63,991 nucleotides of DNA, filler included, from Candidatus Hydrogenedentota bacterium (GCA_040752395.1; 14 parts of 14 records of this genome joined end to end with filler, not necessarily neighbours in it), one strand, 5' to 3'; positions 8,186 through 50,583 are shown, counted from the first letter of the whole stretch. Program-made: numbers and translations. The notes: generated from the sequence alone by a model not told the origin.

Positions 8186-8275
8186 GTAATCCATCAGTTA
8201 CCGCTGGCTTTCAGGCTCCAGGCTACGGGCTACAGCCGGAATACTGCACTAACCCACCTCTAACTGACCGATTGC
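8186..8275. repeat. Element bounded by terminal inverted repeats, containing a GGCT heptad module
   Basis: GTAATCCATCAGTTA ... TAACTGACCGATTGC (12/15 inverted match). Confidence 0.8.
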
Positions 8276-8283
8276 ATATCATA

Positions 8284-10257
8284 TTAAAAGATGTTAATAG
8301 TTTTTTCTAAATATACATCAAAATTAATAAATTCTATCTTTAGTTTGATTATATATTTTCCTGTTTCAAAAATTGCCGGCATAGTTGTATCAAAAGAGAA
8401 AGTCTTGTTGAAAATTATAATAAATAAATCTTTTTTAACTATATTACCTGTGTTATGGATTTTCTGGCCTTTGAGTATCGTATAAGCTATCTTGATATAA
8501 GAATTATCTTTACCAGCAAGAGTACACCATGTGGCATCATCTGTTGTAAAGATAAGTTTTAATTGGATAGGATGATTTACCGGATGGGTATTAAATAACT
8601 CGAGCTGAATAAGTGGTTTCATATTTTCATAAGACAGTAGAGTATATAAGATATGGTTAGTATCTTCAAAAATAGAGGTGAAAGGAGATCCTAATCTGGT
8701 TTTGGTTTTATCTTTATGAAGCAGAACATATTGTATCCCATAGGTTGAGAGAAAAGAGGCTTTAGCTTTATCGCAGAGAGAATCAAATTTACCTGATAAG
8801 ACCCACTGATTAAGCTGTGGGATAAATGAAGACCAGCCATTCATTATAGGATGTTTATGAACAAGCTGTGCAAGATAGTAATAAGCTATATTAAACCGCT
8901 CTTCTGTATTTGTTCTCTTAGCTGGCAGTTCTATAATAGGAGCATTATCTTTAAGTTGCGCAAGATATTTATAGCCAGGAGACGGGTCAGTTAAAACAGG
9001 TTCCTCGACAATTACATTATTTATGTTAAAATTCTCAAGAAATATAAACGATATAAAAATAAATAAAATAATGAAAGATTTTTTGATTGATAATTTAAAA
9101 AATTCTTGAAGATTAAGAAAACCAAAGCCAGACAAAATTGCCATACCTATATGTATTCCAACGGCAAATACAAATATCGCTCTTGCAAAAAACACAGAGG
9201 AGAATATGTGCTTACAAAGTTTAACTATATGAATAAACCCACTTGAAGGATATTTTAGCCCTATACATATATAAAAGCAAATAGCAGTAATGATTAAAGC
9301 ATATATTGGCCAGGACCTCTTTTTTAAAAGGCCTGATAATGAAAGAACTATCACGCAAAAACCAGGAAACATAGGCCACTCTGTTTTGAAAGGGAGTATA
9401 GCTAGATAATGATATAATAAAGCATTTGGTCTTACTGAGGCAAAGTTAGTCAGGGTTAAACTGTGTCTTGTAAGATTAGCAATAGTTCGTTCAAAACCTT
9501 TGTTGGCAAGGGTGTTATGGATGGAATATACAAAAGGCAGAAGCACAATCAAGATAATGACAATAGATAGAAATATAAAAAGGATAAGTTTAGGCTTTAA
9601 TTCTTTATAATCCAGAATACATAGAAAGATCGTTTCTATACATATTATTAAAGTACCTACAACACCATAATACCAGGAGGTAAGAGTATTTGCTACAAAT
9701 GAGATTGAGAATAATAATACATATCTAAATTTTTTCGATTTAAATAACAGGTAAAATGACCATATCATTAAGATAAACCATACGCAACTTACCTCATATG
9801 GGTGGATATAAAAATATTGACGTAGCGGAGAGAAACCCGCTACAAGAGCGGCGATAAATGCAGGTCTGTTCATACCTGTTAGATACCTGATAAAAAGATG
9901 CATAACATACATATAGATAAAGAAATGAAAGATAAATAGAACGTTATAAGCAGCTAAAGGGCATGGGATGATTAATCTGAAGATGATGTATACCAATATA
10001 TTTGTGAAACCGTGGTCGCCATAGAAAAGGGTATTTTTATTAGGGTAAAGGATAGGTGCATCAAAATAGTCTGTATTAAGATTAATTAAAGATTGATAAC
10101 TATATTCATAGAGCCAGATAAAATAACGTGCATCTATTCTATCATAATAATGAGCTTTTGTTATAACAGGGAGTAAGCTCGAAAATTGTAACAAGGTTAT
10201 TACGAGATAAAATAATATAATAACTATTTCTTTTTTTATTTTTGAGTTTCGGCTCAT
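8284..10257 (-). CDS. GT-C-like (YfhO-like) polytopic membrane protein
   Basis: Multiple TMs; [25 protein letters not shown]. Confidence 0.6.
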
Positions 10258-11819
10258 ATAATAATCTTCCAGATATTGTCTTTAGTTTTTATATTATTAA
10301 TAATATTATCAACAGCTGTTATAGCAGTGAGCATAGCATGGTCATGGCTATCATAGTGATGCATACCATTTCTACCGATTAAGAAAAGGTTTTCAAATGT
10401 ATTAAAATAATCTTTTATTATATGAAATCTGTTGTAAGAGCCGCAGTAGATGGGGTATGCTTTATATATTCGTAAGACTGTGCTATCAATGTAATCTTCT
10501 TTATCAATCATACCGATGCTAAATAATTCATCAATAGCTAAATTAATTATATCGTTATCTGGCTTATTCCATAATTCGTCTCCTTCGTTACAGAAATATT
10601 CAAGACCTAACCATACCGTATCCGGATCATTAATCATATAAGGGCTCCAGTTATTATAAATTTGTATTCGTGCGAGTTTGATATTTTTTTGCTGCACATA
10701 TATCCAGCTATCGGGTATGATATTATTTATAGTTTTTATTTTAGTTTTGTTTTTTATTTTTAGTTTTTTTACAAGAAGACCAACAGTAATAAAATCACGA
10801 TACCGCAAATTGTTTGCTATATTATGGACTTCTATCGGAACCTCATTTTCCATACATTTTACTAATTCCTTGACAGGCATTGATGAGAAAAAATAATCAC
10901 CACTCTCTGATTGCGTTTCTCCTGTTATGGTATCTTTAAATTCTATAGCGATTATATTATTATTTTTACAATTTATTTTGACGGCTTTTTTATTTCTATA
11001 GATTATACCCCCTTTTTCTTCAACAATTTTTGCAACCTCTTCCCATAATTGACCGGGCCCTAACTTTGGATAATAGAAATATTTAATAAGAGTTGTTTCA
11101 GTATGAGAGGGATGTTCAAAATCCGCACCTACAGTTGCCAGGAATGACTTTCGGCACTGGCTCATTAGAGTATCAAGGATGGCCTTCAAAAGTGACAGAG
11201 ATTTTACTCTGTGAACACCCCATTGAGAAAATATCTCACTTGCAGATAGCCCCCATACTTTTTCAGTATAGTCTTTAAAAAAAATAGTATATAATTCTTT
11301 ACCAAATCTATTTATAAAAAAATCTTCTATGGTTTTTTCTTCTTTTATCGGGAATAGCCTGATACAAATATAGCTTAATAGTATTTTCAAAATCCTTAAG
11401 ATACCAAGATTAAATATAGTATTAAGAGAGAGAGGATAATCAAAAAATTTATTCATAAAAAATATTCTTGAAATACGGTTTCGGATAAGCATAACCTTGT
11501 CGGTTTTTTCAGGGTCACGACCTTCAGGTTTTATAGAAAGCGGGAGCTTACGACCAAGAACAATGTCATCTCTGGCAGGTTTGGACTGTAAAGGTAATAT
11601 GTTAAACCACCATTGAAGTATTGTGTTTGATTTAGTATAGAATCTATGTCCGCCAATATCTAATCTGTTACCTTTATAATTTATGGTTTTACAGAGACCA
11701 CCAACATTAGAACCCATCTCGTAAATCACAGGAAGGAAGTCTGTTTTATGGATAAGTTCATACGCTGCGGTTAAACCCGCAGCCCCGGCACCAATAATAA
11801 TTGCTTTCTTTTTTCTCAT
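10254..11819 (-). CDS. FAD-dependent oxidoreductase (protoporphyrinogen oxidase / UDP-galactopyranose mutase-like)
   Basis: [26 protein letters not shown]. Confidence 0.85.
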
Positions 11820-11828
11820 AATTACTTA

Positions 11829-11916
11829 GTACCCACTCAGTCTTCGGTTTTGGTTTCCTTAATCTTGCTTCTTGCTTCTTAAGTAAATTCTACTGCACCA
11901 ATAACTGACGGATTAC
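11829..11916. repeat. Element bounded by terminal inverted repeats, filling the intergenic gap
   Basis: GTACCCACTCAGT ... ACTGACGGATTAC with CTTGCTT heptads; right part matches 31816-31872 inverted. Confidence 0.85.
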
Positions 11917-11918
11917 AG

Positions 11919-12413
11919 TTATTTAATACATATAGCCCATTGAGCAATCAGACCCACTGTTTTTATAATTTTTTGTTTAAAATAAGGTATATCTTTAAAA
12001 TATATTAGATTCGTATGCGGGCTTGTTCGTTTCTGAGACAAGCCCAGTAATTCGAGTAAATACGAGAGCCAGTCTGTATTTGGTTTTGGTGAAGTAAGCA
12101 TTAACATTCCACCAGGTTTTAATAAATCATAACAATCTTTAATACAATCAACGTGTTCAATGACTTCAAAACCAATAATTACGTCATATGATTCTTCTTT
12201 CAGCCCGAGTTTTCTCCACTCGAGTATGTTGCCGACGATATCAGCTGGTGGTTTGAGGTCAATACCTGTATAGTCTTTCCTGTCATTTTTCAGAAGATAT
12301 TCTTTTACCCAGCCTGTTCTGCAACCTATCTCAAGAATTTTAGCAGTTTTAGGTATTTGTTTTAAGAAGAAATCAATTTTTTTACGACGAGCATACTCAC
12401 TTAATATCGGCAT
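11919..12413 (-). CDS. Class I SAM-dependent methyltransferase
   Basis: ILEIGCRTG, YTGID, EVIEHV, LKPGG. Confidence 0.85.
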   Translation of the reverse strand: MPILSEYARRKKIDFFLKQIPKTAKILEIGCRTGWVKEYLLKNDRKDYTGIDLKPPADIVGNILEWRKLGLKEESYDVIIGFEVIEHVDCIKDCYDLLKPGGMLMLTSPKPNTDWLSYLLELLGLSQKRTSPHTNLIYFKDIPYFKQKIIKTVGLIAQWAICIK

Positions 12414-12575
12414 AAAAATACCTGCTTTTATCTCTCCAGAGATTAGAATTGAGAATAGCTGCCTTGCAAACTCACCCTCTGTCACCAAATCAGGATTATA
12501 CAAAAGAGGCTATAAATTATGAAGGAATTTATTTGTTGACTTTATACAAAAATTAAACAAAAGATACTATAAATT

Positions 12576-13496
12576 ATGAAAAAAACTGTTTTATATTTTT
12601 GGTTGTTTTTAATTTTGGGTATTTCCTGCGGAAAGAAAGAAGAGGTAATAAAATTTGTAGGATTCTATCGAAGTGAGTGCCCGGAAATACAAAAACTTAA
12701 AGTGAATTTTACTAATACGACTGATAATGATATATCTCCGCACTTTTTTATACAACAAGTACCTTATCAACCAGGATATTGGAGAATTATCAAAGGCTCG
12801 AAGATTGTTTCACCAGCTAAAACAGAGATATATGTTATAAAATCACCTTATGATGATTATGGTTTAATGCCGGAGAAAGAAGCTGTTATTTCGATTCGAG
12901 ATAAGAATTATCAGTATGCACAAAAGATACGGATACCCGAGATAGAATTACCCCCGATATTTAACCCCGATTTCAGCTATTATCGTTTTAATAATAGCAG
13001 GTTAATCAGAGTGCCTATGCACTGGAAGGTTGAAAAGATAAATATGAGAGATGATTCTTTTAATATTATCCGTGATAAGGTAAATAATATTTACTATCAG
13101 ATAATTTTTCCGGTGCAAAAAGAAAAATCAAAAGTCAGGATATCGCAAAATATAGACTATTTAAATAAACCATTAACGATACTTTTGAGATCGAATATTT
13201 CAGCGACAAAAAATAACACTATTATAATACGATTACGATTTGCTGATACAATAATAGATTATGTATTAAGAGATGATTTAGATTCCCCCAAAACAATTAA
13301 GCGGAATAAAAATCATATTGTTATATCTTTGAGATATTCCAGGGATAAACTTACAAGACTTGTCCTCAAGCCATTTGCGTATCTATCAATTAAAGATGCA
13401 TCCTCAAAAAAAATCTTTCTTGAATTGAATATTTTTGTAGAAAACAATAAAGAGAAATATTATTTTGTTCTTGATAGAATAAAATATGCGATCTAG
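12576..13496 (+). CDS. Hypothetical lipoprotein
   Basis: GIS-C lipobox after hydrophobic signal. Confidence 0.65.
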   Translation: MKKTVLYFWLFLILGISCGKKEEVIKFVGFYRSECPEIQKLKVNFTNTTDNDISPHFFIQQVPYQPGYWRIIKGSKIVSPAKTEIYVIKSPYDDYGLMPEKEAVISIRDKNYQYAQKIRIPEIELPPIFNPDFSYYRFNNSRLIRVPMHWKVEKINMRDDSFNIIRDKVNNIYYQIIFPVQKEKSKVRISQNIDYLNKPLTILLRSNISATKNNTIIIRLRFADTIIDYVLRDDLDSPKTIKRNKNHIVISLRYSRDKLTRLVLKPFAYLSIKDASSKKIFLELNIFVENNKEKYYFVLDRIKYAI

Positions 13497-13785
13497 AATA
13501 CGACGTCTCTTTTAAACCCTATTTTGTTTATGGGTTACAAAGTGACAAAGGTACAGAGGCACAAAGGGATATAAAAAGCCTCAAAAAACTTTGTGCCTTT
13601 GTGCCTGAAAAAAATGACTTTTAAAAGAAACCTCGTATTCCCTCAGAACTTGTGAAATAATCAACATTAATACCTGCTAACTTTTTTATTATCAGTCCCC
13701 ATTTTCTAAAAAAGTCTAATTTTTTCACAGGTTTTCAGTCTTCAGTGGGATTCCGTAATCTTGCTTCTTGCTTCTAAAGTAATAC
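13496..13785. repeat. Nested palindromic elements (8-mer GCACAAAG/CTTTGTGC hairpin, terminal motif, second inverted repeat)
   Basis: GAATACGACGTCTCTTTTAAA...TTTTAAAAGAAACCTCGTATTC; GTATTCCCTCAG at 13635; AACTTGTGAAA...TTTCACAGGTT. Confidence 0.75.
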
Positions 13786-13791
13786 TTTCTC

Positions 13792-13820
13792 TTGACAAAT
13801 GATTTTTATGCAGTTATAAT
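13792..13820 (+). promoter_or_regulatory. Consensus sigma70 promoter
   Basis: TTGACA-N17-TATAAT. Confidence 0.8.
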
Positions 13821-13860
13821 GCATAAAAAAGAGAAAATTTGTGTATTAAGAGATTAAACT

Positions 13861-14019
13861 ATGGGACTTAGAGAGATAAAACAGATCTTAATTGACCAAA
13901 GTGAAAATCTAAAATGCAACAATCTACTAATTTTGACTGATGATGTAGAAGAAAAAGAAAAGGTTAAGGGTAAAATAATAACCTTTATCCCGGTATGGAA
14001 ATGGATAATTTACCCATAA
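13861..14019 (+). pseudogene. 52-aa internally deleted remnant of an AAA_14/DUF4143-type ATPase
   Basis: MGLREIKQILIDQ fused to LKCNNLLILTDD...IITFIPVWKWII, resembling the two termini of that family. Confidence 0.55.
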
Positions 14020-14025
14020 ACAGGA

Positions 14026-15036: not shown

Positions 15037-15042
15037 AAGTGG

Positions 15043-15687: not shown

Positions 15688-15847
15688 TTGTTTACTCCTA
15701 TGACAAGTTAAAAGTTAAAAGGCAAAAGTAAAAAATATCATATCATCTCCTATGACAAAAAACAAGAAGCAAGATAACGAAAAAGTAGTGAGCTAACGGT
15801 TCACAAAAACGAAAAAATCTATAAATTATCAAAAATTGTCAATATTT

Positions 15848-19819: not shown

Positions 19820-19877
19820 AGCTTAATTCACGCTTGCAGGTGGAGTAGACCAGGCTGTCGGCCTGGCCCTGCCTGCT

Positions 19878-21593: not shown

Positions 21594-21633
21594 TGAGCTG
21601 TTGCAGATAGTTTGCGCCTGCGTTTACAAGAAA

Positions 21634-22464
21634 ATGAAGATGTTATTTTTAAAAGTTGTTGTCTATTTTTTGATATTTGTTTTTTTTCTGAAAATGTTTG
21701 TTTGGTTTTATGAAAGAAAACTTATCTATTTCCCGTATAAAATTTTAGAATATACACCTGATGTTATTGGGTTGAAATGGGAAGATATTGAGGTGGTCAC
21801 AGATGATGGGATTAGACTGAACGGATGGTATATACCTGCTCTGGATAGTATCTGCACTCTAATATTTGCTCATGGGAATGCGGGCAATATCTCACATAGA
21901 CTTGATAAGATTATAATGTTTTATAAAAGAAATATCTCTGTTTTTATCTTTGATTATCGTGGTTATGGTAAAAGTGGTGGCAGGCCATCAGAAAAAGGTT
22001 TGTACCTCGATGGTTTAGCTGCATATAATTATCTGGTAAACAAAAGAGGGGTCCAACCGGAAGATATCGTAGTATATGGTGAATCCATAGGGTCTGCTAT
22101 AGTTTCGTATATCGCTTCAAAAAACAGAGTTAGAGCGATTATCCTTGAGTCGCCGTTTACAAATGCTCGAGATATGTCAACTAAGATATTGCCTTTTTTA
22201 CCTGTAAAATATTTTGTAACTATAAAATTTGATATTATGTCAATGCTAAAAGATGTAGAGGACCGTATACTTATTATTCATGGCAATAAAGACGAGATTG
22301 TTCCGTTCTTACTTGGCAAAAAGTTGTTCGATTCATTAAAAACTAAAAACAAAGAATTTTATGAAGTACCTGAAGCGGGTCATAATGATGTCAGTTTTGT
22401 AGGTGGTGACAGATATTTTGACAGGATAAAAGAATTTATTCTTGCAAATAGAGATACAGAGTAA
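21634..22464 (+). CDS. Alpha/beta hydrolase
   Basis: HGNAGN, DYRGYG, GESIG nucleophile, HGNKDEIVP, GHND; stop codon lies in the terminal motif GTAATTCCTCGGT. Confidence 0.9.
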   Translation: MKMLFLKVVVYFLIFVFFLKMFVWFYERKLIYFPYKILEYTPDVIGLKWEDIEVVTDDGIRLNGWYIPALDSICTLIFAHGNAGNISHRLDKIIMFYKRNISVFIFDYRGYGKSGGRPSEKGLYLDGLAAYNYLVNKRGVQPEDIVVYGESIGSAIVSYIASKNRVRAIILESPFTNARDMSTKILPFLPVKYFVTIKFDIMSMLKDVEDRILIIHGNKDEIVPFLLGKKLFDSLKTKNKEFYEVPEAGHNDVSFVGGDRYFDRIKEFILANRDTE

Positions 22465-22876
22465 TTCCTCGGTTCGAAGAGTCAAAGAGTTGAGGGTTAA
22501 GAATGGGGTGGTGAACAAAGGGATGACTCGGTGGCAGCTGAAGCAAGAGGAAAGAGACGCCGCGAATTTAGAAGAAGGTGGAATTCTAGAGAAGAGAGAC
22601 GGGATAATTATGAACAATAGTAAACCACTGGTAATATAATTGCTAAGATCATAAAATCATATAATAAAAAAATCGTTTTAGATATTGGATGTCAATAGAA
22701 AAATTGTGTAAATAAAAAGAGGGATAAAGAAAGCAATAGCAAAGAGCCCGATAAAAATTACGATTTAGGGAAAAACNNNNNNNNNNNNNNNNNNNNNNNN
22801 NNNNNNNNNNNNNNNNNNNNTTAATTAATTAANNNNNNNNNNNNNNNNNNNNNNNNNNNNNNNNNNNNNNNNNNNN

Positions 22877-23437: not shown

Positions 23438-24061
23438 TCAGGTTATTATTTTATCTTTTATTTGTTTAGCTATATTAAAAGTATTACCGGCTTTATTCTG
23501 CTTTAGCGCTTCCTTGTCAATAAGTTCACTCATACCAACTGCATATGCACCGGCTTTGAGATAATCAAGAAGATTATCTTTATTTACCCCACCTGTTGGG
23601 ATAAGTTTAGCTTGAGGTAAAGCTGCAAGTATAGCTTTAATAAAGTTAGGTCCACCAAGAGATGAGGCAGGAAAAACTTTCACAACTTTTGCACCAGATT
23701 TGGTTCCATTAACTATCTCGGTTACAGTTCCACAACCAGGAATATAAAGTAAATTATTTGAGACTGCAAATTTCATAATATCAAAATCAAGATGTGGTGA
23801 AACAATAAATTTAGCACCTGCGTTTATTACCCCCTGTGCAGTACTACTATCCATAACAGTTCCTGCACCTAAAATAATGCCTTTTAGAAATGATAATTTT
23901 TTAATAATATCAATAGCTCCTTTCACAGTCATTGTTATCTCAATGATTCTGAAGCCGGCTTTTAATAGCTCATCTACCGCGATCTCGGTCTGAAGATGAT
24001 CTTCTGTTCTAAGAACAGGGATAATTTTTTCTTTACCAATTAATTCTAAAATATCATCCAT
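23438..24061 (-). CDS. eda: KDPG/KHG aldolase
   Basis: IEIT, GAGTV, FIVSP, VKVFPA, PTGGV. Confidence 0.9.
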   Translation of the reverse strand: MDDILELIGKEKIIPVLRTEDHLQTEIAVDELLKAGFRIIEITMTVKGAIDIIKKLSFLKGIILGAGTVMDSSTAQGVINAGAKFIVSPHLDFDIMKFAVSNNLLYIPGCGTVTEIVNGTKSGAKVVKVFPASSLGGPNFIKAILAALPQAKLIPTGGVNKDNLLDYLKAGAYAVGMSELIDKEALKQNKAGNTFNIAKQIKDKIIT

Positions 24062-24062
24062 A

Positions 24063-24358
24063 TATTCCCCTCAGTTTCCGGTGTTCGATGTTCGGTTCAC
24101 CGATAACCTAAAACCCAAAACCTATAACCGAATATCTTGCTTCTTGCTCTTTGTCGCTTCGCTCCATTATAAATTTAGGCTTCGAGCCACTGGCTTCAGG
24201 CTCCAGTTGAAAAGTCGGGAGCCACGAGCCCAGAATCGTAAAATCAGTCAATAAGTCGTAAGTCAAGGACTGACGACTCAAGACTCCCCAGACTGATTTC
24301 ATTTTGCAATTTCCAATTTCCAATCTTCAATTCCGAATATCCTGTATCTTGCTTCTTG
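24063..24358. repeat. Mosaic of heptad modules ending in the terminal motif that provides the eda SD
   Basis: TATTCCCCTCAGT; TTCGG/AACC module matching 59624-59690 inverted; AGTC/GACT and TTTCCAA modules. Confidence 0.85.
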
Positions 24359-25378: not shown

Positions 25379-25541
25379 NNNNNNNNNNNNNNNNNNNNNN
25401 NNNNNNNNNNNNNNNNNNNNNNTTAATTAATTAANNNNNNNNNNNNNNNNNNNNNNNNNNNNNNNNNNNNNNNNNNNNTCTTAACGGAAAAGAAAGATAA
25501 CGAACGAAGCAAGAAGCAAGAGGCAATAACTGACGAATTAC

Positions 25542-26371: not shown

Positions 26372-26433
26372 AAGCCTACCATATACTTATAAATTATATC
26401 ATATTATACGAATTATACAAGTAATAATTGAGA

Positions 26434-26497
26434 TTTTTATCCATCTCTTGATTTTATGTCAATTGTTTTATTATGCAAATTATAGTATCCCCTCAGT
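26434..26497 (-). promoter_or_regulatory. Portable terminal-motif plus promoter unit, copy 1
   Basis: ACTGAGGGGATAC-N22-TTGACA-N17-TAAAAA; near-identical to 27813-27876. Confidence 0.75.
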
Positions 26498-26626
26498 CTT
26501 CTTGCTCCCACACCAATTGTTTATTAGACAGCTATTGTTTTCTGGCAATTGGTTTGTAGCGTTTGCTTCTTGCTTTTATTTGAGATTATCATAGTTACAA
26601 AATTTTTCAGGGGAGTGATTAACTAA

Positions 26627-27747: not shown

Positions 27748-27812
27748 TTTCTGAAAATATCACTTCGTGGTTTTCATCTCCCTCGTCGTTTAATCTCTTT
27801 TGGTCTAACTAA

Positions 27813-27876
27813 TTTTTATCCCTCTCTTGATTTTATGTCAATTGTTTTATTATGCATATTATTGTACTCCCTCAGT
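27813..27876 (-). promoter_or_regulatory. Portable terminal-motif plus promoter unit, copy 2
   Basis: ACTGAGGGAGTAC-N22-TTGACA-N17-TAAAAA. Confidence 0.75.
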
Positions 27877-28048
27877 TATAGGTTATATAATAGAAGCAAG
27901 AAGCAAGAGGCAAGAAGCAAGAAACGGCAAGCAAGAGGCAAGAGGCAANNNNNNNNNNNNNNNNNNNNNNNNNNNNNNNNNNNNNNNNNNNNTTAATTAA
28001 TTAANNNNNNNNNNNNNNNNNNNNNNNNNNNNNNNNNNNNNNNNNNNN

Positions 28049-28306
28049 TCAGCAGGCTCTGGGCTTTTGGCTCCAGCCGGCTGTAGTCCGTAGCCTGTAG
28101 CCTGTAGCCCGTCCTGACACCTCTCACTTCTTACTTCCCACTTCTTCTCCACCTATAACCGAGGGAATACAGGAAAGAATAAAAACAGATTGACGTTAAA
28201 CAGCTATTATGTTATAAGAAGAAAAGAGTGTGTAATGCCTCAGTCTTCGGTTTTAGTCTCTTTATCTTGTTTCTTGCTTCTTACTCATCTATAACTGAGG
28301 GATTAC
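28049..28306. repeat. Composite repeat, promoter and a second inverted-repeat-bounded element
   Basis: ACCGAGGGAATAC 28158-28170; TTGACG-N17-TATAAG 28190-28218; GTAATGCCTCAGT 28232 ... ACTGAGGGATTAC 28306. Confidence 0.85.
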
Positions 28307-30590: not shown

Positions 30591-30786
30591 GTCGTGAGTC
30601 AAAACAGGACTCGAGACTCAAGACTCAAGACTCAAGACTTTTCAGCAGGCTCCGGGCTTCGGGCTCCAGCCGGCTGTAGTCCGTAGCCTGTAGCCTGTAG
30701 CCTGTCCTGATACCTCTTACTTCTTCCGTTATCTTGCTTCTTGCTTCTACTTGATATTATTATAGTTACAAAGTTTTTCAGAGGAG
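30591..30786 (+). repeat. Full composite repeat ending TTTTTCAGAGGAG
   Basis: Same module order as 38004-38193. Confidence 0.95.
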
Positions 30787-30788
30787 GG

Positions 30789-31795: not shown

Positions 31796-31869
31796 TCTAT
31801 ATTTTTTATTTTCTTGTACTCCCTCAAGTTATTGGTGCGTTTGAATTTACTTAAGAAGTAAGAGGCAAG

Positions 31870-32245
31870 AAGCATTGTTTCCTCGCCGCCGGAAGGACAT
31901 TCATACATAGTCAAGTCTAATATTACAATCGGTTGCCCGTTGCGATAGAATATCTTATCGGCTTTTTTTCTTTCAATGCTTGAGCGCATCCATTCAGACA
32001 TTGAATTGCATCATAATCTCTTTTCAGCAGCCAGCTGACCGTAGAATTGGATATACCCATATCTGCGAGGAATCTTATTGTTATATACCAAAGGCAGGAT
32101 GTAATTCCTCGCTGGCAAGCACGGAAAGGGACAAGATATTAATCAAAACTTCCTCACCCGCATAAATAGCATGAAAGTGAGGAGGATTATGGTCATCCCA
32201 GAACATTTTGATCGTAATACCGAAAAATCTGGAAATTTCAGGCAT
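31870..32245 (-). pseudogene. Fused remnants: DUF4160 N-terminus, DUF5615 PIN-like N-terminus, YgiT-type zinc finger
   Basis: MPEISRFFGITIKMFWDDHNPPHFHA (32245-32081); IRFLADMGISNSTVSWL (32078-32000); FYRNGQPIVILDLTMYECPSGGE. Confidence 0.7.
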
Positions 32246-32803: not shown

Positions 32804-32936
32804 AACTATAGTTAAGCAGAAAATACAAGATAAAAATTCATAAAAAAGTGAATTTAAGAGTGTTATTTATGTCTAATATTTTTTTATTGTTTGTGGGGAA
32901 CATACACAAAGTATCAAAAATTAATTTTTTGATACA
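32804..32936 (+). repeat. 133-bp repeat, copy 1
   Basis: 2 mismatches versus 35225-35357; ends in palindrome GTATCAAAAATTAATTTTTTGATAC. Confidence 0.9.
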
Positions 32937-33088: not shown

Positions 33089-33375
33089 GCTACAGGCTAC
33101 AGGCTACGGACTACAGCCGGCTGGAGCCCGAAGCCCGGAGCCTGCTGAAAAGTCTTGAGTCTTGAGTCTTGAGTCTCGAGTCCTGTTTTGACTCACGACT
33201 TGCGACTCACGACTCTTTTTATATCATCTTTAGTTTTTCATCCTTTGTGCGCCTTCTCCTTCTGCCTCCTGTCTCCTGTCTTCTTTCTGCCTTTGCCTGC
33301 CTGCCGCGGCGGAGTGCGGCGGAGGCAGGTGCCTCTGTGCCTCTTGCATCTTGCTTCTTTTGTTATCTTACTTCT
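33089..33375 (+). repeat. Composite repeat with nested GC-rich palindrome
   Basis: GGCTAC, GAGTC/GACTC, CTCCTGT and TGTGCCT modules; CCTGCC...GGCAGG at 33296-33329. Confidence 0.9.
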
Positions 33376-33408
33376 AATATATAATATATTGTTCTTTTAG
33401 GCAAGTTT

Positions 33409-35211
33409 TTAGAGAAAATTAGCATCCAATTTTTTGCCTTTATAAAAATAGTTATACCAGATATCTTTATCATCACGTAATCTGTCAAAAAATGGAATAT
33501 AAGAGATTTTGAAATAATAAGCGTTGGTTTGTGTTAAGCGAGGGATATAGAAGAAGATTCTTTCTTTGTAGATGGTATGAGTTTTTAGCTTGTTAAGACA
33601 GAAATGTTCATAGAGAGGAGAAAAAAGGTTATAAAACAGGATATTTTCTGATTTATCAAATAATACAAGAGCTAACCCAAATTTTGTCTCCTGGGCTTTC
33701 TTGAGATAGAAATATAGATCAAAGTGATACACAGTTCTTGGTTTGATTTTATCAGGTATATCTATATAAAAACTTACAGTATCATTGAGGTCATTAAATA
33801 AACATCTCTCAATTTGGGAGAAAGTTGTTAGTTCCGTATCTTTTGAGATTTTCCAGAGAAGATTATCCTGAACCAATGGATAGATTTTACTTATATCAGA
33901 GTGAGGGAATACAAGATAGGTATTATCATAAGTAGATAGTTTCTGGATTTCATTCAACCAGGAGTCATTGAATAGATTTGCTCTCATAATTATATTTATA
34001 TCATCTCTGTTTTTTAATACGTATTTATTATACCAGAGTGCTGTAGCATAATGCCAGCTGGAGAGAATAACAGAGTTTTCAGGAAGATTTCTATTTATTG
34101 TTTGCAGATAATCAAAAGCAAGATAGCTATGTGAGCGGCTAAGATGTGTCCCTGAAAACTTATAGAAGAAAAACTGGAAACAGATAACGAGTACGCAGAT
34201 TATCAATGATATATTTTTAGACAATTTATTAAATAGTCTATGTAATCCGCATCCTGCATAGATTGATAATAGCAAGTAAGCAGGTAAGAGATAAACGTCA
34301 AAATCAGGTATTTTGTAGAATATTGCGGTGAGGATTATAAATAAAATAGAGAATAGAGATGAATAAAAAAACGGTTTATTTTTTTCTATTAAAAAGATAA
34401 TGCCAGAAGGTATAACAAGACATAATAAAAAGAACTGGAATATTATATCAGAAATAATCTTTATTATTTTTACTTTCATCGGGATTAATTGTAAATATCC
34501 TTTTTCTGAACGGAAATGAGAACCCGAGATATAATCGAAGAACTCTTTTATATTCGATACACAAGGCCAGTCAAGTATAGTAACATCCCCGGCAGACCTT
34601 ATTGGTATATATAGATATACGGTTAGAGATATAAGAAAGCATATTATAGCTAAAAAAATATGTTTGTTTCGTAGTCGTTTAACCCACTGAAAAAAATATA
34701 TTATCCAGAATGGGATAAAAACAATAACATAGAGTAAATGATGCGAGATACCAAGACCAGTAATAAACACGAGAAAACAAATATTTCTTCCGATGTATAT
34801 TAATAGAGAGAGAAAAATAAAAAATAATAAAAGCGGATATACCTCTGGAATTGTTGATTGTATAGTAAATTCGTATGAAATAAGAAAAGAGATGATAGTA
34901 AGAAAAGATGGTATTATATTTAACCCCAGTTTTTGTAAGAGGATATATAATAATACAATTGTTAAAGATGAAGTAAATATTGAAAAAATTGTCATAGAAA
35001 TAAAAGGAGAGAATAGAGGAGAAAGTATTGTTATGAAAGTTTTGCCAAGGAGTAAATAAAGAGGATACCCTGTACTATGAACAAAAGATAAAAGATATGC
35101 ACCTGTGCTTAATTCAGCCGGGTCCCCAAACTGGATGTCTGGTGGAGAAAGAAGATAAAGATAAATGAATGATAAAAAGAAGATACAAAAATATAAAACA
35201 AAGTTTTTCAT
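33409..35211 (-). CDS. DUF2723 (TMEM260-like) GT-C membrane glycosyltransferase
   Basis: GDPAEL, HSTGYPLY, PEVY, GISHH, YLYIPIRS. Confidence 0.8.
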   Translation of the reverse strand: MKNFVLYFCIFFLSFIYLYLLSPPDIQFGDPAELSTGAYLLSFVHSTGYPLYLLLGKTFITILSPLFSPFISMTIFSIFTSSLTIVLLYILLQKLGLNIIPSFLTIISFLISYEFTIQSTIPEVYPLLLFFIFLSLLIYIGRNICFLVFITGLGISHHLLYVIVFIPFWIIYFFQWVKRLRNKHIFLAIICFLISLTVYLYIPIRSAGDVTILDWPCVSNIKEFFDYISGSHFRSEKGYLQLIPMKVKIIKIISDIIFQFFLLCLVIPSGIIFLIEKNKPFFYSSLFSILFIILTAIFYKIPDFDVYLLPAYLLLSIYAGCGLHRLFNKLSKNISLIICVLVICFQFFFYKFSGTHLSRSHSYLAFDYLQTINRNLPENSVILSSWHYATALWYNKYVLKNRDDINIIMRANLFNDSWLNEIQKLSTYDNTYLVFPHSDISKIYPLVQDNLLWKISKDTELTTFSQIERCLFNDLNDTVSFYIDIPDKIKPRTVYHFDLYFYLKKAQETKFGLALVLFDKSENILFYNLFSPLYEHFCLNKLKTHTIYKERIFFYIPRLTQTNAYYFKISYIPFFDRLRDDKDIWYNYFYKGKKLDANFL

Positions 35212-35224: not shown

Positions 35225-35357
35225 AACTATAGTTAAGCAGAAAATACAAGATGAAAATTCATAAAAAAGTGAATTTAAGAGAGTTATTTATGTCTAATAT
35301 TTTTTTATTGTTTGTGGGGAACATACACAAAGTATCAAAAATTAATTTTTTGATACA
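35225..35357 (+). repeat. 133-bp repeat, copy 2
   Basis: See 32804-32936. Confidence 0.9.
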
Positions 35358-38003: not shown

Positions 38004-38193
38004 AGTCAAAACAGGACTCGAGACTCAAGACTCAAGACTTTTCAGCAGGCTTTTGGCTTTTGGCTCCAGCCGGCTGTAGTCCGTAGCCTGTAGCCTGTAG
38101 CCCGTCCTGATACTTCTCACTTCTTCCGTTATCTTGCTTCTTGCCTCTTGCTTCTACTTGATATTATTATAGTTACAATGTTTTTCGAAGGAG
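38004..38193 (+). repeat. Composite repeat supplying the clpB SD
   Basis: ...TTGATATTATTATAGTTACAATGTTTTTCGAAGGAG-AACCAAA-ATG. Confidence 0.95.
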
Positions 38194-41918: not shown

Positions 41919-41936
41919 CGAAAGAAGCAAGAAGTA

Positions 41937-44900: not shown

Positions 44901-47900
44901 GGAATAATATATCCTGATACTGCGAGATTCAGTACTTATGGTGGTACGGTTGTTTTATCTGCTGTGAGTCTTACGAAGGTAGGGAATATTACAATAACTG
45001 CGATTAACAATTCTGGTAGGTTCGGGACTACAACGATTCAGGTTATACCTGCGGCTGTTGACCATTTTATCTTAAGTGCTTCAGTTACAAACATTACAGC
45101 AGGTTATCCATTTATTCTAAACATTACTGCCTATGATGAGTTCAACAATCTTCAGACTTTATTTAACAACAGCGCTTATTTGACTGTTACTGCCGGAACG
45201 ATTACACCATCTATAACCGCTGCATTTACTTCAGGTACTATAACGATTACTGGTGTTACAATAGACAGAGCAGGAACACAGACAATAACCTGTTATTATG
45301 GTTCTGCCACTGGTACCACAGTAATTTATATCATTCCAGATACGCCTACATATTTTGTTCTCAAAGTATCATCCTCGGCTGTAGCTGGTGATACTTTCTC
45401 ATTAGAGATAACAGCGTGTGACAGGTTTAGGAATGTATCAACTCTTTATAACGAGACAGCGAGTATATCAACCGATACAGGTATAGGTGCATGGATCTAT
45501 CCGACTTGGACCTCGAATTTCGTTAACGGTACAACAGTGGTTTATGTTTCAATCAATCGAACCGGGACCCGAACGATTACAGTAAGAGACATCTGGGATT
45601 ATGGCACAGGCACGACATCAATCCTTATAACACCTGATTCAACATCGTATTTTGTAATAGCTATGTCTGATACAGTAAGAGCTGGTGTCCCATTCCAGAT
45701 GCAGATAACCGCTTATGATATATTTGATAATATCCAGACGAATTTCGATGATACTGTAAAAATCGAGATATCTTCTGGTACGATATACCCGAGTGTGACA
45801 GGTAATTTCAACCAGGGAGTTATTGTTGTGAACAATGTTACTGTCACAAAAATAGGTGCTGTAGTAATAACCTGTATTGATGGTTCGTCAGCTACCACAG
45901 CTACAGGGACTAAACCTGTTTACGTATTACCTGGTATATTATCTTATTTTGTAGTCACCACAGATACACCAGAGATACCTGCAGGCGAAACATTCAGCAT
46001 AACCATAACTGCTTATGATTCTATCGGTAATATAAAGACCGATTCAAATATTTATATCTCATTACTGGTTAATTTAGGTGTTATCACTCCGACTATAGCT
46101 GATACTATGTTAGACAGTGGAACTGTAACAATACAGAATGTTACTTTGACAAAGACTGGTACAGTGACTATCACAGCATATTATTACAGTGGGGTTGATA
46201 CTGTTTATGGAGCTGATACAATTCTTGTAACTCCTGGTAGCTTAAGTTACTTTATTATCTCAGTCGATACAAATAACCTGCAATTAGGCGACTCATTTAT
46301 TTTATATGTTACTGCTTATGACAGGTTTGCTAATATAAGGTTAAATAAATTTGATACGGCGATTATTACAACAGATGATCCAGCAGAGGATCAGGAAACG
46401 CCTGCATTCTTAATAATGGGTGATTCAGGTTGCACAACTACTGTCTGTTATATAGTAGCCCAACCCAATACTACAACAATAGTGATTGTACAAAATGGAG
46501 AGGCTCAAGGCACAGTACCGATTATTTTAAGTTTCGAGGGTATATATACTTTAGAGTTAAGCATACCTGATACTACCATAGAAGCAGGCACGCCATTTAC
46601 TTTAAGGGTAACAGCTGTTGACCCATTTGGTTATCCGATTGCAACTATTACAGGCGATACTTCGGCCTCGTATTTCTATTTCAGGATATTAGGTGGTGGG
46701 CCTGAAGATGTGGAGCCAGATACTTTCGCATTCCCGATAGAATTCAATGATGGTTATTATGAAACCAACATACTTATTATAACTCAGGCAGGAGTAGACA
46801 CTTTAGAAGTGAGTATACAAAGTTATGCTCCTTTTGGTGTAAAAACAGAGTATCCTTGCAAAATAGATGTAGATGTTGATCCTGCAGAACATACACGATA
46901 CGGCGTATCTATTGTTGGCGGTGATACTGAGATCACAGCAGGTGAGACATTTGCTTTACAGGTTAGTGCCTGGGATACCTGGGCTAACCTGGTCCCGATA
47001 AATGGAGGTACTGTAAGTATCTATGCTTATATAGACTTTGAAACAGTCCCAATATTAACCAATGCCTCCGGTGTTCTTAATAATGGTACCTGTGTTACGA
47101 TCGAGATATTATATCGAACAGGTACAACACAGATAATAGTCTATGATACCTTAGCTAGAACTGGTACTCTCACACCACTTATTATATTACCTGCAGAACT
47201 ACATCATTTTGTTATAGATACTCCTGTATTTCCAACAGCTGGTGTATGGTTTACACTTAAAGTTACAGCAAGAGATATCTATGAAAATCTTGTAACTTCA
47301 TATACAGGCAAAGTAGATTTTGAAGTAACAGAGATACAGTCTGGTCTTCAGTATCCTATACAACCACAACAGAGTAATCAATTTACAAATGGTGTACTGG
47401 TACAGAGCGTATCAATCACTTATGGTGGAACCGTTGTTTTAACCGTGAAAGACTCTGTTACTCCTTCGGATTCAGGAAGTATTATATTCTTTATATCTTT
47501 ATATAGTGGAGTTGAGCTAACAGGTGGTGATACGCTTTATTTATATCCTGGTGAAAGAGGATATATAACATTAATAGTGAAAAATTATGGTGAGGGTGTA
47601 GATATATTTGATCTTAGTATAGCGCAGGATTATGATTTTGCTGTGAAATTTATTCAGGATGATGACCAGGACAATAAACATGATGAAAGCGAAACCACAG
47701 AGTTACCAGCTTATACTGATTTAATATATCCGTTGGATACCTATTCATTCTTTGTCTATGTTGATGTCCCATCAACTACGCAGGTATTACTTTATAATTA
47801 TATAATAGTTGCTGCTACCTCGAGAGCAAATAACAGCAAGACAGATACAGAGCGTAGTTTAGTGATAACAGTCAGTGAGAGCATACCTGCTACTACTTTG

Positions 47901-48962
47901 GGGTTGAAAATAATAACTGAGGATTATCCTGGTGAGAACAAGATGTATATAGAGATAATATTAGCAGATGCAACGACAGGCCAGCGAGTAGCACCACATC
48001 TTGTAGAGGTCGAGTTTGTACCCTATGACGCAAGAGCGAGTGTTGAATACATACCTGATAGCTATGCATATTTAGGTAGAGCAAAAATCTGGTATCGGCC
48101 ATTACCTGAGAAGACAGTCAACGTAGGGTTAGATGGCAGGATCGGCTCATTTGGCTTCAGCAAGGCGTTCGTAAAACGTAAACATACAACATTTATTGTG
48201 CCTGACCCGGATAATTCTCAGGTACTTGTTGAAAGAGATATATTACCAACTGATACACACTTTATTACAATAGCGAGACCTGATACCGATGAACTCGCAA
48301 TAATTAATGCTGCTTATGATGTATTAAGCGGTAATTTTGCGTTAATGCCGATAGTTGTAAAGAGCCCGGATATTAACACTTATGTTCCGCATCATAAATT
48401 TTCGTTACTCGATGACCAGGGGAATATTAATGAAAAACCACAATTTATTAAACCAGTTAGAATTATAATACCATATCCGGATAATGACCATAATGGAGTG
48501 GTTGATGAGTTTGGGATACCTGAAAGTACTTTAAGGATGTATAGACTTAATCCACAGGCACAAAGATGGGAACTGGTTGAGAATCAGCAGAGAAACGCTG
48601 ACTATGATTATGTTGAAGCTGTTGTATCTGAATTTAGTTTCTATACATTACTCGGTTCAGCATCAACCAATGCTTTATCAATGTCGCGTAGTTATCCGAA
48701 CCCGTTCTATCCATTACAGCGCCAGACCATAACTATTAACACATTTACCACGATTAGTTCTTTAAGGGTTAAGATTTATAATATTGCGGGTGATTTAGTT
48801 AGAACGCTTGATGACGGTTCTGAAATAATCAGTTTAGATCCTGGAATGGCGGTCTGGGACGGCAAAAACGATAGAGGTAATTTTGTAGCAAGTGGTTTGT
48901 ATATTTTTGTGGCTGAAACGAATTTAGGCACAGCGACCGGAAAGATTACATTGATAAAGTAG
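41937..48962 (+). CDS. 2341-aa secreted Ig-like repeat protein with T9SS/FlgD-like C-terminal domain
   Basis: ~96-aa repeats with ITAYDxxGN; C-terminal YPNPF...IYNIAG...WDGKN...ASGLY. Confidence 0.85.
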   Translation: MKFMVKQVIGLCKKARWKQKIKRVLLPGTAISVFLFSILLLSSSGVYGVNDPNYTPYQSLIIHGGDTIGALFPELNVVDTFPDAIMYYGNNPKDGCGTTLIVVVPRNAPTCSPVPQLTPDSDVIVDSIYFVVLETDTFDTSAKVADTAYLIHTIYNFANTTDSFSFRIYLSDTIDYDSAGVYYDADTDGVLDTTDPLITTTSTMNQGDTMQIIIPILISPHTTLPDTCLVRIEVWSIYHSTYMKPDSDVADTSYDIVTATVGDIDSFVISSPTYNVTAGINFILYITPVDPAWNPIYGYSGDSMYSTSRDTITPDRVLNTFTQGDGYTIENVSITKTGYITITVQDGLGHYGIIGLNVEPDTIGSFLISSSSGIVTAGWGFNLSITAFDRWGNQANDTSFRDTAFFSVTTGCSITPEVTGEFRAGTVALSNVTLNRTGTITITVYYANAIGTTTLWVEPDTTQYFALSTDTSIVAIGENFNLSITAYDRFGNINWNHSDSVTLIVSKGDISPDTTAGFTSGIKTLAVSLSQSGTITITAYTNEGKYGTTSIVVAPIGVEYFIITANVNSITAGYGFSLYITAYDQYNNVNLDFEDSASLSVSTGVIVPSITDTFTSGTCAMSGVTIDKAGTQVIRVAYGVAEGTTVIYIIPDTPTYFIVSSVSEIVAGDTFNLYITAYDRFWNISTVYSDSVKLIVDTGNIVPDSAYGFTDGIKVQAVSVTKTGTRVITVTDANNYATGTTTIYVTPDSTAYFEISGPDTVLTGDTFILQITAYDRFWNIQTEFDSKILFYISDGNIYPDISGNFSSGFREESVSITKTGDSIVITCSDPITGSYDTFVIQVLPSELSYFMISSDSVVVTAGYSFRLDVTAFDRFGNVKTDYTGDAYLEVSSGTITPVMTGNFTGGTVTVYPVTLTRSGTITITVETGTIFGTMQIWVEPDTTQYFTLSTDTSIVVAGNSFVLGITAYDRFDNINWNYLDTVSILASDGIIYPDTARFSTYGGTVVLSAVSLTKVGNITITAINNSGRFGTTTIQVIPAAVDHFILSASVTNITAGYPFILNITAYDEFNNLQTLFNNSAYLTVTAGTITPSITAAFTSGTITITGVTIDRAGTQTITCYYGSATGTTVIYIIPDTPTYFVLKVSSSAVAGDTFSLEITACDRFRNVSTLYNETASISTDTGIGAWIYPTWTSNFVNGTTVVYVSINRTGTRTITVRDIWDYGTGTTSILITPDSTSYFVIAMSDTVRAGVPFQMQITAYDIFDNIQTNFDDTVKIEISSGTIYPSVTGNFNQGVIVVNNVTVTKIGAVVITCIDGSSATTATGTKPVYVLPGILSYFVVTTDTPEIPAGETFSITITAYDSIGNIKTDSNIYISLLVNLGVITPTIADTMLDSGTVTIQNVTLTKTGTVTITAYYYSGVDTVYGADTILVTPGSLSYFIISVDTNNLQLGDSFILYVTAYDRFANIRLNKFDTAIITTDDPAEDQETPAFLIMGDSGCTTTVCYIVAQPNTTTIVIVQNGEAQGTVPIILSFEGIYTLELSIPDTTIEAGTPFTLRVTAVDPFGYPIATITGDTSASYFYFRILGGGPEDVEPDTFAFPIEFNDGYYETNILIITQAGVDTLEVSIQSYAPFGVKTEYPCKIDVDVDPAEHTRYGVSIVGGDTEITAGETFALQVSAWDTWANLVPINGGTVSIYAYIDFETVPILTNASGVLNNGTCVTIEILYRTGTTQIIVYDTLARTGTLTPLIILPAELHHFVIDTPVFPTAGVWFTLKVTARDIYENLVTSYTGKVDFEVTEIQSGLQYPIQPQQSNQFTNGVLVQSVSITYGGTVVLTVKDSVTPSDSGSIIFFISLYSGVELTGGDTLYLYPGERGYITLIVKNYGEGVDIFDLSIAQDYDFAVKFIQDDDQDNKHDESETTELPAYTDLIYPLDTYSFFVYVDVPSTTQVLLYNYIIVAATSRANNSKTDTERSLVITVSESIPATTLGLKIITEDYPGENKMYIEIILADATTGQRVAPHLVEVEFVPYDARASVEYIPDSYAYLGRAKIWYRPLPEKTVNVGLDGRIGSFGFSKAFVKRKHTTFIVPDPDNSQVLVERDILPTDTHFITIARPDTDELAIINAAYDVLSGNFALMPIVVKSPDINTYVPHHKFSLLDDQGNINEKPQFIKPVRIIIPYPDNDHNGVVDEFGIPESTLRMYRLNPQAQRWELVENQQRNADYDYVEAVVSEFSFYTLLGSASTNALSMSRSYPNPFYPLQRQTITINTFTTISSLRVKIYNIAGDLVRTLDDGSEIISLDPGMAVWDGKNDRGNFVASGLYIFVAETNLGTATGKITLIK

Positions 48963-49067
48963 TAGTTAAGAAGCAAGAGGCAAGAGGCAAGATGATAATT
49001 TGAATCTTTGAATCTTTCAATCTTTGTGCCTCAAACTATGTGTTTTATTTAAAGATATAAAGTTTCT

Positions 49068-50471
49068 ATGACGAAAATTACTATTAGGATTAGTATGTTA
49101 ACTTATAGAAGTATATATAGTATAATATTATTTCTGGTAGTTACAATATTCAACTTACAAGCCACAGGTTTATTTGCTGATGACAAAGGTACGACATCAG
49201 CACAGTTTTTAAAAATAGGTGTTGGCGCGAGACCTGGTGCGCTTGCGAATGCTTATTCTTCAATCGGCGAGGATGTTATAAGTATTTTTTATAATCCTGG
49301 TGGCCTTGCATTTACTGAAAAAGCTGAGATATCAGCTATGCATAACGAATATTTCCAGGATATAAATTTTGATTTTATTGGGCTATCTTTTCCAGTAGGC
49401 AAGCGTCATACTTTAGGCACCGGTCTACAACTTTTAAAAACCACAGATACAGAGCGAAGCGAATATTTAGGGATCGTATTATCCGAGTTCGATATTGAGG
49501 ATATTGCAGCTACATTCTCCTATGCATATTTATTAAATGAAAGATTAGGCCTCGGCATAAACGGCAAATATATCAGAGAGGTTTTATTTCATCATTCAGC
49601 AAGCACTTTAGCAGCTGATGTCGGTGTCCTTTTTAAGACGCCGTTTAGAGGGTTAAATCTTGGATTAAGTATTCAGCATCTTGGCGGTAAGCTAAAATTT
49701 ATTCAGGTTAGTGATCCATTACCTGCAAATATAAGATTCGGGATATCTTATAAAATTTTTAAAGACCAGGCACTCATAACAGTTGATACGTTTAAATATA
49801 GAAATGAAGACCCTGATGGGTGTATCGGATTTGAGTGGAATTTTAAAAATCTGTTACAATTAAGAGCAGGCTACAGATTTACATCTGATTTAGAACCTTC
49901 AGATGCTATAACCGCAGGACTTGGAATAAGTTATAAAGATTTGTCATTTGATTATGCTTATGTGCCTTATGGCGAGTTGGGTAATACTCATCGGTTCAGC
50001 GGTAATTTTAAATTCTGGAAGACTGAGCGAGATATAACACCGAAACCGCCACCAGCAACTTATATTACTCTACCAAAAAAAGAAGTAAAGGTTGTGCCTA
50101 AAAAGCTTGGGAAAGCAGCTATCTTTAAATTGACCCCGGTCGAGGAATTATATCGATCAGAACTTATTGAAGAAGAGATAAAAGAGGGTTTGAAAGTGAT
50201 TTTACAAGAAGGCGGTGTTTTTACTGTTTTGTCTGATGAAGAAATGAGAGTTAAAATGGCCTTGGCACCTGAATCACTTAACCTTGAGAACGCTTGCAGA
50301 CTATTTGGAACTGATTATGTTATTTTTGGTGGTTATAGTATGGATGAAGATAAAATAAATATCAATATTAGTTCTGTTGATTCGTTAGGAAAGATAAAAT
50401 CAATTCAAATTAAAACTGAGATAAAAAATATTATCCGTGAAATCAGAAAATCTATTGATAAAATATTATGA
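49068..50471 (+). CDS. PorV/PorQ (UPF0164)-family outer-membrane barrel with C-terminal extension
   Basis: FLKIGVGAR...FYNPGGL...LRAGY...DYAYVPYGELGNTHRFS. Confidence 0.8.
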   Translation: MTKITIRISMLTYRSIYSIILFLVVTIFNLQATGLFADDKGTTSAQFLKIGVGARPGALANAYSSIGEDVISIFYNPGGLAFTEKAEISAMHNEYFQDINFDFIGLSFPVGKRHTLGTGLQLLKTTDTERSEYLGIVLSEFDIEDIAATFSYAYLLNERLGLGINGKYIREVLFHHSASTLAADVGVLFKTPFRGLNLGLSIQHLGGKLKFIQVSDPLPANIRFGISYKIFKDQALITVDTFKYRNEDPDGCIGFEWNFKNLLQLRAGYRFTSDLEPSDAITAGLGISYKDLSFDYAYVPYGELGNTHRFSGNFKFWKTERDITPKPPPATYITLPKKEVKVVPKKLGKAAIFKLTPVEELYRSELIEEEIKEGLKVILQEGGVFTVLSDEEMRVKMALAPESLNLENACRLFGTDYVIFGGYSMDEDKININISSVDSLGKIKSIQIKTEIKNIIREIRKSIDKIL

Positions 50472-50480
50472 TTATAGTAT

Positions 50481-50583
50481 GTAATCCGTCAGTAGAAGCA
50501 AGAAGCAAGATAACGGAAAGAAAGATAATGAAAAACGTAGATGGTCTAACATTAACAAACTCTACCGAAAACTGAGGGAGTAC
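50481..50583 (+). repeat. Inverted-repeat-bounded element directly before the ATG
   Basis: GTAATCCGTCAGT ... ACTGAGGGAGTAC-T-ATG. Confidence 0.9.

Follow-up and report, generated by a model that had tools for sequence, protein, structure and literature searches.

A 63,991-nt stretch of DNA from a Candidatus Hydrogenedentota bacterium (GCA_040752395.1), referred to here as the window, carries a motif of about 13 bp at many places between positions 8186 and 50583, which raises the question of what this motif is and why it recurs between genes. The first-pass annotation of the window regarded the sites as recombinase half-sites or transposon ends that serve to exchange gene cassettes and spacers. 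Our analysis supports the transposon ends: with a probability of ~0.85, the 13 bp form the outer portion of the ~16-19-bp terminal inverted repeat (TIR) of non-coding MITEs (miniature transposable elements with inverted repeats) of an IS66-family insertion sequence (IS). The sites have IS66-type TIRs, with 8-bp target duplications that are imperfect in the window, and the half-site and cassette-exchange part of the earlier proposal is not borne out. GTAA... ends and 8-bp duplications make up the signature published for IS66.

The motif is real, non-random and intergenic. The degenerate 13-mer GTAHTCCSTCAGT, with at most one mismatch allowed, matches the window 12 times, compared with a mean of 0.34 and a maximum of 2 in 100 dinucleotide-preserving shuffles. 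A second scan of the whole window with GTAATCCCTCAGT at up to three mismatches recovered 16 of the 17 coordinates listed previously, and the remaining one, 24063, is a more degenerate copy with one substitution and one extra C. At up to two mismatches there are 14 sites, 11 of which are non-coding by a script count (P ~8e-7, with 17% of the window non-coding and 83% in open reading frames (ORFs)); re-reading of the sites placed 12 of the 14 at intergenic or gene-edge positions. The first-pass annotation had let its case depend on enrichment at intergenic positions over background, and this enrichment is present by either count. At 28232 and 28294 the only overlapping ORF is a doubtful one of 95 aa, which begins within the 28232-28306 element, and on re-reading the site at 63796 lies inside an open-ended PolX ORF. 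Two matches are probably due to chance. The site at 32101 lies inside a coding region, presumably a DUF4160-like ORF, with a DUF2442 ORF as its neighbour; the site at 33900, absent from the earlier list, lies within an ORF and has one mismatch to GTAHTCCSTCAGT and two to GTAATCCCTCAGT. The consensus of the 14 best window ends is GTA[A/C/T]TCC[C/G]TCAGT[T/C][A/T]T.GG, with G in 14/14, T in 13/14 and A in 14/14 at positions 1-3 and A8/C3/T3 at position 4. This consensus agrees with the end found in other phyla past the first 13 nt.

All four inverted pairs of the first-pass annotation are present. They are complete elements, and are listed here together with one decayed copy.

8186-8275, no strand assigned: complete 90-nt MITE-like element, ends GTAATCCATCAGT and (as reverse complement) GCAATCGGTCAGT, GGCTACA-type heptamers inside
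11829-11916, no strand assigned: complete 88-nt MITE, ends GTACCCACTCAGT and (as reverse complement) GTAATCCGTCAGT, TCTTGCT heptamers inside
28232-28306, no strand assigned: complete 75-nt MITE, ends GTAATGCCTCAGT and (as reverse complement) GTAATCCCTCAGT, with the G/C asymmetry seen in other phyla
50481-50583, no strand assigned: complete 103-nt MITE, ends GTAATCCGTCAGT and (as reverse complement) GTACTCCCTCAGT
7564-7704, no strand assigned: decayed copy, end GTAACACATCATT (9/13), subterminal sequence as in 28232 and 11829, enlarged by further short tandem arrays

The four pairs enclose 75-103 nt of non-coding DNA without credible ORFs; the called start of ORF 7730-8194 falls within the end at 8186. 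Comparison of the 8-bp flanks showed 7/8 matches for 8186-8275 (ATATTATA/ATATCATA) and for 50481-50583 (TATAGTAT/TATGGTAT), each with a chance level of ~0.0012, which is the frequency of at least 7/8 matches among random 8-mers taken at the same spacing in the window. The flanks of 28232-28306 match at 5/8 positions. Those of 11829-11916 match at 4/8, or at 7/9 for 9-bp flanks and 6/8 if the right boundary is shifted by 1 nt (hand count). Taken alone, the window duplications are only suggestive. The interiors had been described as different, with the conclusion that the elements are not one MITE family. This conclusion does not hold, as three of the four complete elements (11829-11916, 28232-28306 and, on the reverse strand, 50481-50583) have a common subterminal sequence and TCTTGCT/AGAAGCA heptamer repeats, and the decayed copy at 7564-7704 has this interior as well. 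The interior of 8186-8275 is of another heptamer type, unlike the other three.

The same end is present in other genomes. The exact 18-mer GTAATCCCTCAGTTATWG was found in 62 stretches of a species-representative genome collection, whose hosts include Nitrospirota, Thermodesulfobacteriota, Ca. Zhuqueibacter, Neomarinimicrobiota, KSB1, Caldithrix and others; many of the matches are near the ends of stretches or contigs, as expected of a repeat. A 16-mer version of the end has 61 and 44 matches in two metagenome-assembled genomes (MAGs), compared with 0 for the reversed control. The 62 loci contain 25 inverted pairs of the end, mostly 100-400 nt apart as in MITEs, and the 8-bp flanks of these pairs are perfect in 8 cases and match at 7/8 in 6 more. 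The duplications there include GGCAAGAC, TGTTCTCC and CACAATCT. MITEs with this end in Neomarinimicrobiota also hold short tandem repeats inside.

In three MAGs of other phyla the end GTAATCCCTCAGTTATWGG is the outermost sequence beside IS66-family DDE transposase genes. In the locus of a Thermodesulfovibrionales MAG (L106) the end is followed by ~60 nt, by a 300-aa DruA/DUF4338-like ORF (PF14236, 1.5e-31) and then by a DDE_Tnp_IS66 ORF (PF03050, 1.5e-26; NCBIfam transpos_IS66, 2.4e-45, below the cut-off on the truncated ORF). The same two-ORF architecture, at 73% identity and with the ORFs starting right at the end, is present in a second locus (L139), and a DruA-like ORF lies just inside the end in Ca. 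Zhuqueibacter (L125). The DruA/DUF4338-like ORFs of these three loci also have a weak match to the Mom family. In another Nitrospirota MAG (L307) a variant end, GTAATGGGTCAGTTAT, lies 76 nt ahead of an IS66 transposase ORF, and in a further locus (L308) a C-terminal IS66 ORF stops 76 nt short of the inverted end. The first-pass annotation had proposed to look for a recombinase or transposase gene flanked by the motif; the transposase genes found beside the end in other genomes are of the IS66 family, and no IS630 gene was seen in the loci examined. Compared with annotated IS66 transposases of plasmids, those beside the end reach an identity of 27% at most.

Comparison with described elements points in the same direction. 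PMC12888890 gives IS66-family inverted repeats as GTAAGCGTCCGG... and GTAACCGTCCGGGCA (GTAAGCG..., GTAACCG...), and PMC6778807 gives a target duplication of 8 bp for IS66. For ISDge4, a member of the single-transposase ISBst12 group, PMC12898284 gives the TIRs GTGACTACTCAGCA and GTAACTGCTCAGCA with an 8-bp direct repeat. Ends of the IS66 family and its ISBst12 group resemble the window ends in beginning with GTAA, and ISDge4 GTAACTGCTCAGCA and the window motif both read GTAA...CTCAG. The window elements resemble the IS66 family further in their 8-bp duplications and in the DDE_Tnp_IS66 transposase that adjoins the same end in the three MAGs. However, the window copies are gene-free, and in Nitrospirota a DruA/DUF4338-like ORF precedes the transposase rather than the classic TnpA/TnpB. 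Like bacterial MITEs such as those of Pseudomonas syringae and Cardinium, the window elements are small (75-103 nt here), have TIRs and a target duplication, lie between genes and occur in many copies at which assemblies break; they differ in their parent family, which is IS66 here, and in interiors made of heptanucleotide tandem arrays of variable length.

On this reading, a DDE transposase of the IS66 family, whose gene lies in another part of the genome or was once there, would bind the two inverted ends and insert the element into AT-rich intergenic DNA, duplicating 8 bp of the target. The interiors of heptanucleotide tandem repeats would expand and contract by slippage and would decay, and decay together with changes in array length may produce the mosaic spacers and the many solo or degenerate ends. 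We infer that an IS66 transposase of the same organism mobilised the window copies.

Several observations weigh against assignment of the window elements to IS66. As stated in the first-pass annotation, the window has no recombinase or transposase gene: Pfam scans of 47 window ORFs detected none, no IS66 transposase was found by these scans or by tblastn with the L106 transposase, and tblastn of the L106 transposase and DruA-like protein against the window gave nothing better than E 0.5. No complete autonomous copy, with both ends and a duplication, was found in any genome, all IS copies being truncated by contig ends. The window duplications are imperfect (7/8, 4/8, 5/8 and 7/8), and the nearest relatives of three window proteins, at 55-63% identity, are too distant for an empty-site comparison. 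The subterminal TCAGTCTTCGGTTTT of one window end type was not found in other genomes by an exact scan. A 52-nt flank outside the end (26433-26484 and 27812-27863) is common to two sites, which simple independent insertion fails to explain. Finally, IS66 copies in two further genomes (G008, G009) are without this end, so it is the mark of a subgroup rather than of the IS66 family as a whole. Exact scans with window-specific repeat strings found none in the genome-contig or metagenome-contig collections, save three apparently chance matches of one string.

The appearance of gene blocks and spacer blocks is explained largely by how the window was put together. The window is not contiguous, and consists of 14 contigs (1.7-17.4 kb) joined by 13 artificial linkers of 100 nt.

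2607-2706: first linker, 44 N + TTAATTAATTAA + 44 N
starts at 5305, 22777, 25379, 27949, 30491, 32989, 35474, 37904, 40265, 57555, 59905 and 62211: the other 12 linkers

Gene order across the linkers is arbitrary, and adjacency there is meaningless. There are 26 internal contig ends, and a hand count places at least 11 of them within repeats. The contigs broke inside the copies because the copies are repeated, as happens in short-read assembly, and the concatenated contigs therefore resemble gene blocks separated by motif-bounded spacers. The remaining copies of the element, several of which are cut by contig ends, are as follows.

25479-25541, no strand assigned: right part of a MITE truncated by the start of contig 5, AGAAGCA-type repeats and then ...ACTGACGAATTAC
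27864-27948, no strand assigned: left end of a MITE that is cut short where contig 5 ends, GTACTCCCTCAGTTATAGG followed by eight AGAAGCA units
28049-28170, no strand assigned: composite heptamer array from the start of contig 6, terminating in the inverted end ACCTATAACCGAGGGAATAC
26485-26615, no strand assigned: solo left end, GTATCCCCTCAGT, then repeat-derived sequence with no recognisable right end
13635-13647, plus strand: solo end, GTATTCCCTCAGA, intergenic after ORF 12576-13496
22461-22473, plus strand: weak solo end, GTAATTCCTCGGT, overlapping the stop of ORF 21601-22464
24062-24326, no strand assigned: degenerate end, ATATTCCCCTCAGT, directly next to the ATG of ORF 23438-24061 (minus strand), then ~260 nt of mixed heptamer arrays
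31816-31875, plus strand: solo end with an indel, GTACTCCCTCAAGTTATTGGTGC, followed by AAGAAGC repeats

The site at 25529 is only 50 nt from the contig start, 27864 is 85 nt from a contig end and 28158 is 109 nt from a contig start, and the apparent pair 27864/28158 spans a linker. A candidate partner of the 22461 end at 22515 is poor, with three mismatches and no duplication. The claim that the motif divides the genome into gene and spacer blocks is thus not upheld: several of the boundaries are repeat copies truncated at contig ends, and the block picture is largely a product of an assembler breaking contigs within a multi-copy repeat, followed by concatenation.

The first-pass annotation also stated that the same ends bracket cargo, namely the PIN and the HEPN-MNT toxin-antitoxin pairs of contig 5. 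Analysis of the orientations does not agree with this. The PIN pair is flanked by a '-' end (25529) and a '+' end (26485), so that both elements face away from it, and the HEPN-MNT pair lies between two '+' ends (26485 and 27864); neither arrangement is a '+ ... -' unit. The toxin-antitoxin genes sit between neighbouring insertions, and not within a unit with inward-facing ends. A 65-nt stretch, common to 26433-26497 and 27812-27876, lies upstream of both toxin-antitoxin operons and is composed of the 52-nt outer flank and the MITE end, with the similarity ending on both sides. The flank is promoter-like (TTGACA-18-AAAAAT, score 10/12) and is directed towards both operons; promoter-like sites are not enriched in contig 5 (16 vs. 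12.7 in shuffles). The common flank suggests duplication or recombination of MITE-adjacent DNA, with two cases only.

A separate arrangement was observed in a Nitrospirota MAG (L306, G005:C17, positions 3396-6682), where four ORFs, including two that are pilin-like (PF07963), lie between two inverted ends separated by 3.3 kb. Neither a transposase nor an 8-bp duplication is present, and the right end has a MITE of 255 nt directly beside it. This arrangement was not counted as a cargo transposon.

Site-specific recombination, integron-like or of another kind, in which the motif would be a recombinase half-site for the exchange of spacers and toxin-antitoxin cassettes, would account for the toxin-antitoxin pairs between motif sites on contig 5, and the 65-nt motif and promoter-like stretch common to both operons hints at recombination or duplication. 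The short imperfect inverted repeats among small genes, toxin-antitoxin pairs included, also recall integron attC cassettes. However, the ends round the two pairs ('-/+' and '+/+') show no uniform cassette orientation, of the three sites on contig 5, those at 25529 and 27864 are copies truncated by contig ends, and Pfam detected no integrase or other recombinase among the 47 window ORFs scanned, the window being only part of a genome. Nor is there an attC-like requirement for a single-strand fold. The inverted pairs lie around non-coding DNA with 8-bp flank duplications, a signature of transposition and not of conservative recombination, and the same end adjoins DDE transposase genes in other genomes. 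We therefore regard the integron-like exchange of cassettes and spacers proposed earlier as very improbable. Little credence can likewise be given to the other suggestion of the first-pass annotation, that the elements are MITEs of an IS630/Tc1-mariner element inserting at TA. The target is AT-rich and 5 of the 14 window ends are preceded by TA, but only those 5, and the duplications are 8 bp long and not TA: the 2-bp flanks match at 0/2 in all four complete elements, whereas the 8-bp flanks match at 7/8 twice, and perfect 8-bp duplications other than TA are present in other genomes. The transposases beside the end are moreover of the IS66 family and not DDE_3/IS630, of which none was found in the loci examined.

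A repeat maintained by the host for structural or regulatory reasons (REP/BIME-like, or part of a 5' untranslated region or ribosome-binding site), no longer or never mobilised by IS66 here and kept for a GAGGGA Shine-Dalgarno sequence or an mRNA hairpin, would fit the position of some ends near start codons. The right end of 50481-50583, ACTGAGGGAGTAC at 50571-50583, is followed by t and the ATG of a 2266-aa ORF; an ATG directly adjoins the degenerate end at 24063; and the left end of 11829-11916 is 9 nt from the ATG of ORF 10254-11819 (minus strand). A second repeat family ends in TTTTTCRGAGGAGTAC directly ahead of start codons, and, as in BIMEs, numerous repeat modules combine into mosaics between the genes. 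However, only 3-4 of the ~14 sites adjoin a start codon, the rest lying after stops or far from genes. In predicted RNA folds of the four elements only the ends pair, and the folds do weakly better than those of shuffled sequences (z -1.5 to -2.5), no Rfam match was found at gathering thresholds, and the ORF scans of the window showed no Y1/RAYT (IS200-like) gene. A host-specific regulatory motif also leaves unexplained an end that is common to transposase-bearing elements across phyla. Such a repeat is an improbable origin for the motif. Exaptation of some copies is compatible with their being IS66 MITEs. The GAGGGA of the ends at 50571-50587, 24059-24075 and 11817-11841 could act as a Shine-Dalgarno sequence for the adjacent genes, and some copies, judged by their sequence, may supply a ribosome-binding site.

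The mosaic spacers of the first-pass annotation are made up of heptamer arrays, and are not a recombination system. Arrays of period 7 account for 59 of the 111 TRF rows (56 merged arrays, 1,399 nt), compared with 0-4 in each of 20 block shuffles. The heptamer units number dozens, including TCTTGCT, CTGTAGC, AGTCTTG, GACTCAC and TCCGAGC, and form recurrent modules, some imperfectly palindromic, at many contig ends. Such arrays are found, for example, at 1-168, 24062-24326, 27892-27948, 30591-30787, 33089-33390, 57831-58201 and 61861-62210. PMC4679880 describes heptamer direct repeats (TAACTGA; cyanobacterial STRR) of Beggiatoaceae, Cyanobacteria and Bacteroidetes as abundant, intergenic and often just upstream of starts. 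The window resembles these genomes in its abundant intergenic period-7 arrays, often just ahead of start codons, and in an inner end sequence that holds TAACTGA on the opposite strand; it differs in having dozens of units and no TAACTGA array by TRF, so that this is a resemblance only. Heptanucleotide arrays next to gene starts are extraordinarily plentiful in the host genome, and may bear on the role of such repeats.

Other repeats in the window were noted beside these arrays. A composite module occurs in seven places (28049-28132, 30591-30787, 33089-33281, 38004-38186, 61861-62053, 1-157 and 2447-2606), six of which are at contig ends or where the window begins. In this module GGCTNCA heptamers form an imperfect palindrome around CAGCCGGCTG, followed by an AGTCTTG array and a conserved TTTTCATATCATCTTTAGTTTTTCATCC stretch; the module is evidently a repeat of high copy number, at which the assembly breaks. 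The second repeat family is ~145-175 nt long with heptamer arms (57835-58010, 58486-58629 and, in reverse, 62105-62210), and its terminus immediately precedes an ATG, for example that of plsX at 58630. A 133-nt repeat is common to the 3' regions of contigs 7 and 8 (32804-32936 and 35225-35357). The first and last 127 nt of contig 9 (35574-37903) match over their full length in one self-BLAST match, which suggests a circular or tandemly repeated unit of 2,203 nt; this contig encodes a TumE-like toxin and small DUF4258 ORFs. The 2266-aa ORF contains eight tandem copies of a 297-nt unit at 52109-54486, with Big_13 Ig-like and NHL domains and a CHU_C type IX secretion signal. The CHU_C signal and a weak PorV-like match below the cut-off hint at an organism of the FCB group.

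In the searched literature we found no description of a MITE family with IS66-type ends; the elements described here are probably IS66 MITEs of a divergent subgroup. The 12-mer GTAATCCCTCAG was not found there, nor was DUF4338 together with IS66. In the portions of that literature available, no IS66-derived MITE was found, IS66 being present only in tables or as full-length ISs. The apparent new system of cassette shuffling comes down to ordinary MITE biology, viewed in joined contigs whose breaks fall within repeats. Conservation of the end itself between distant phyla is unusually high, and a DruA-like ORF accompanies it in Nitrospirota. It is conceivable, though rather unlikely, that the elements derive from an unnamed and widely transferred IS66 subgroup, whose members would carry a DruA/DUF4338-like ORF and a divergent DDE transposase and would have in common, from Nitrospirota to the FCB group, at least 16 nt of the end. 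This subgroup would seed heptamer-array MITEs, whose arrays would have expanded here into intergenic mosaics supplying Shine-Dalgarno and promoter sequences. If so, it would be a counterpart, fed by transposons, of the regulatory networks of heptamer repeats in Beggiatoaceae and cyanobacteria, which are unexplained.

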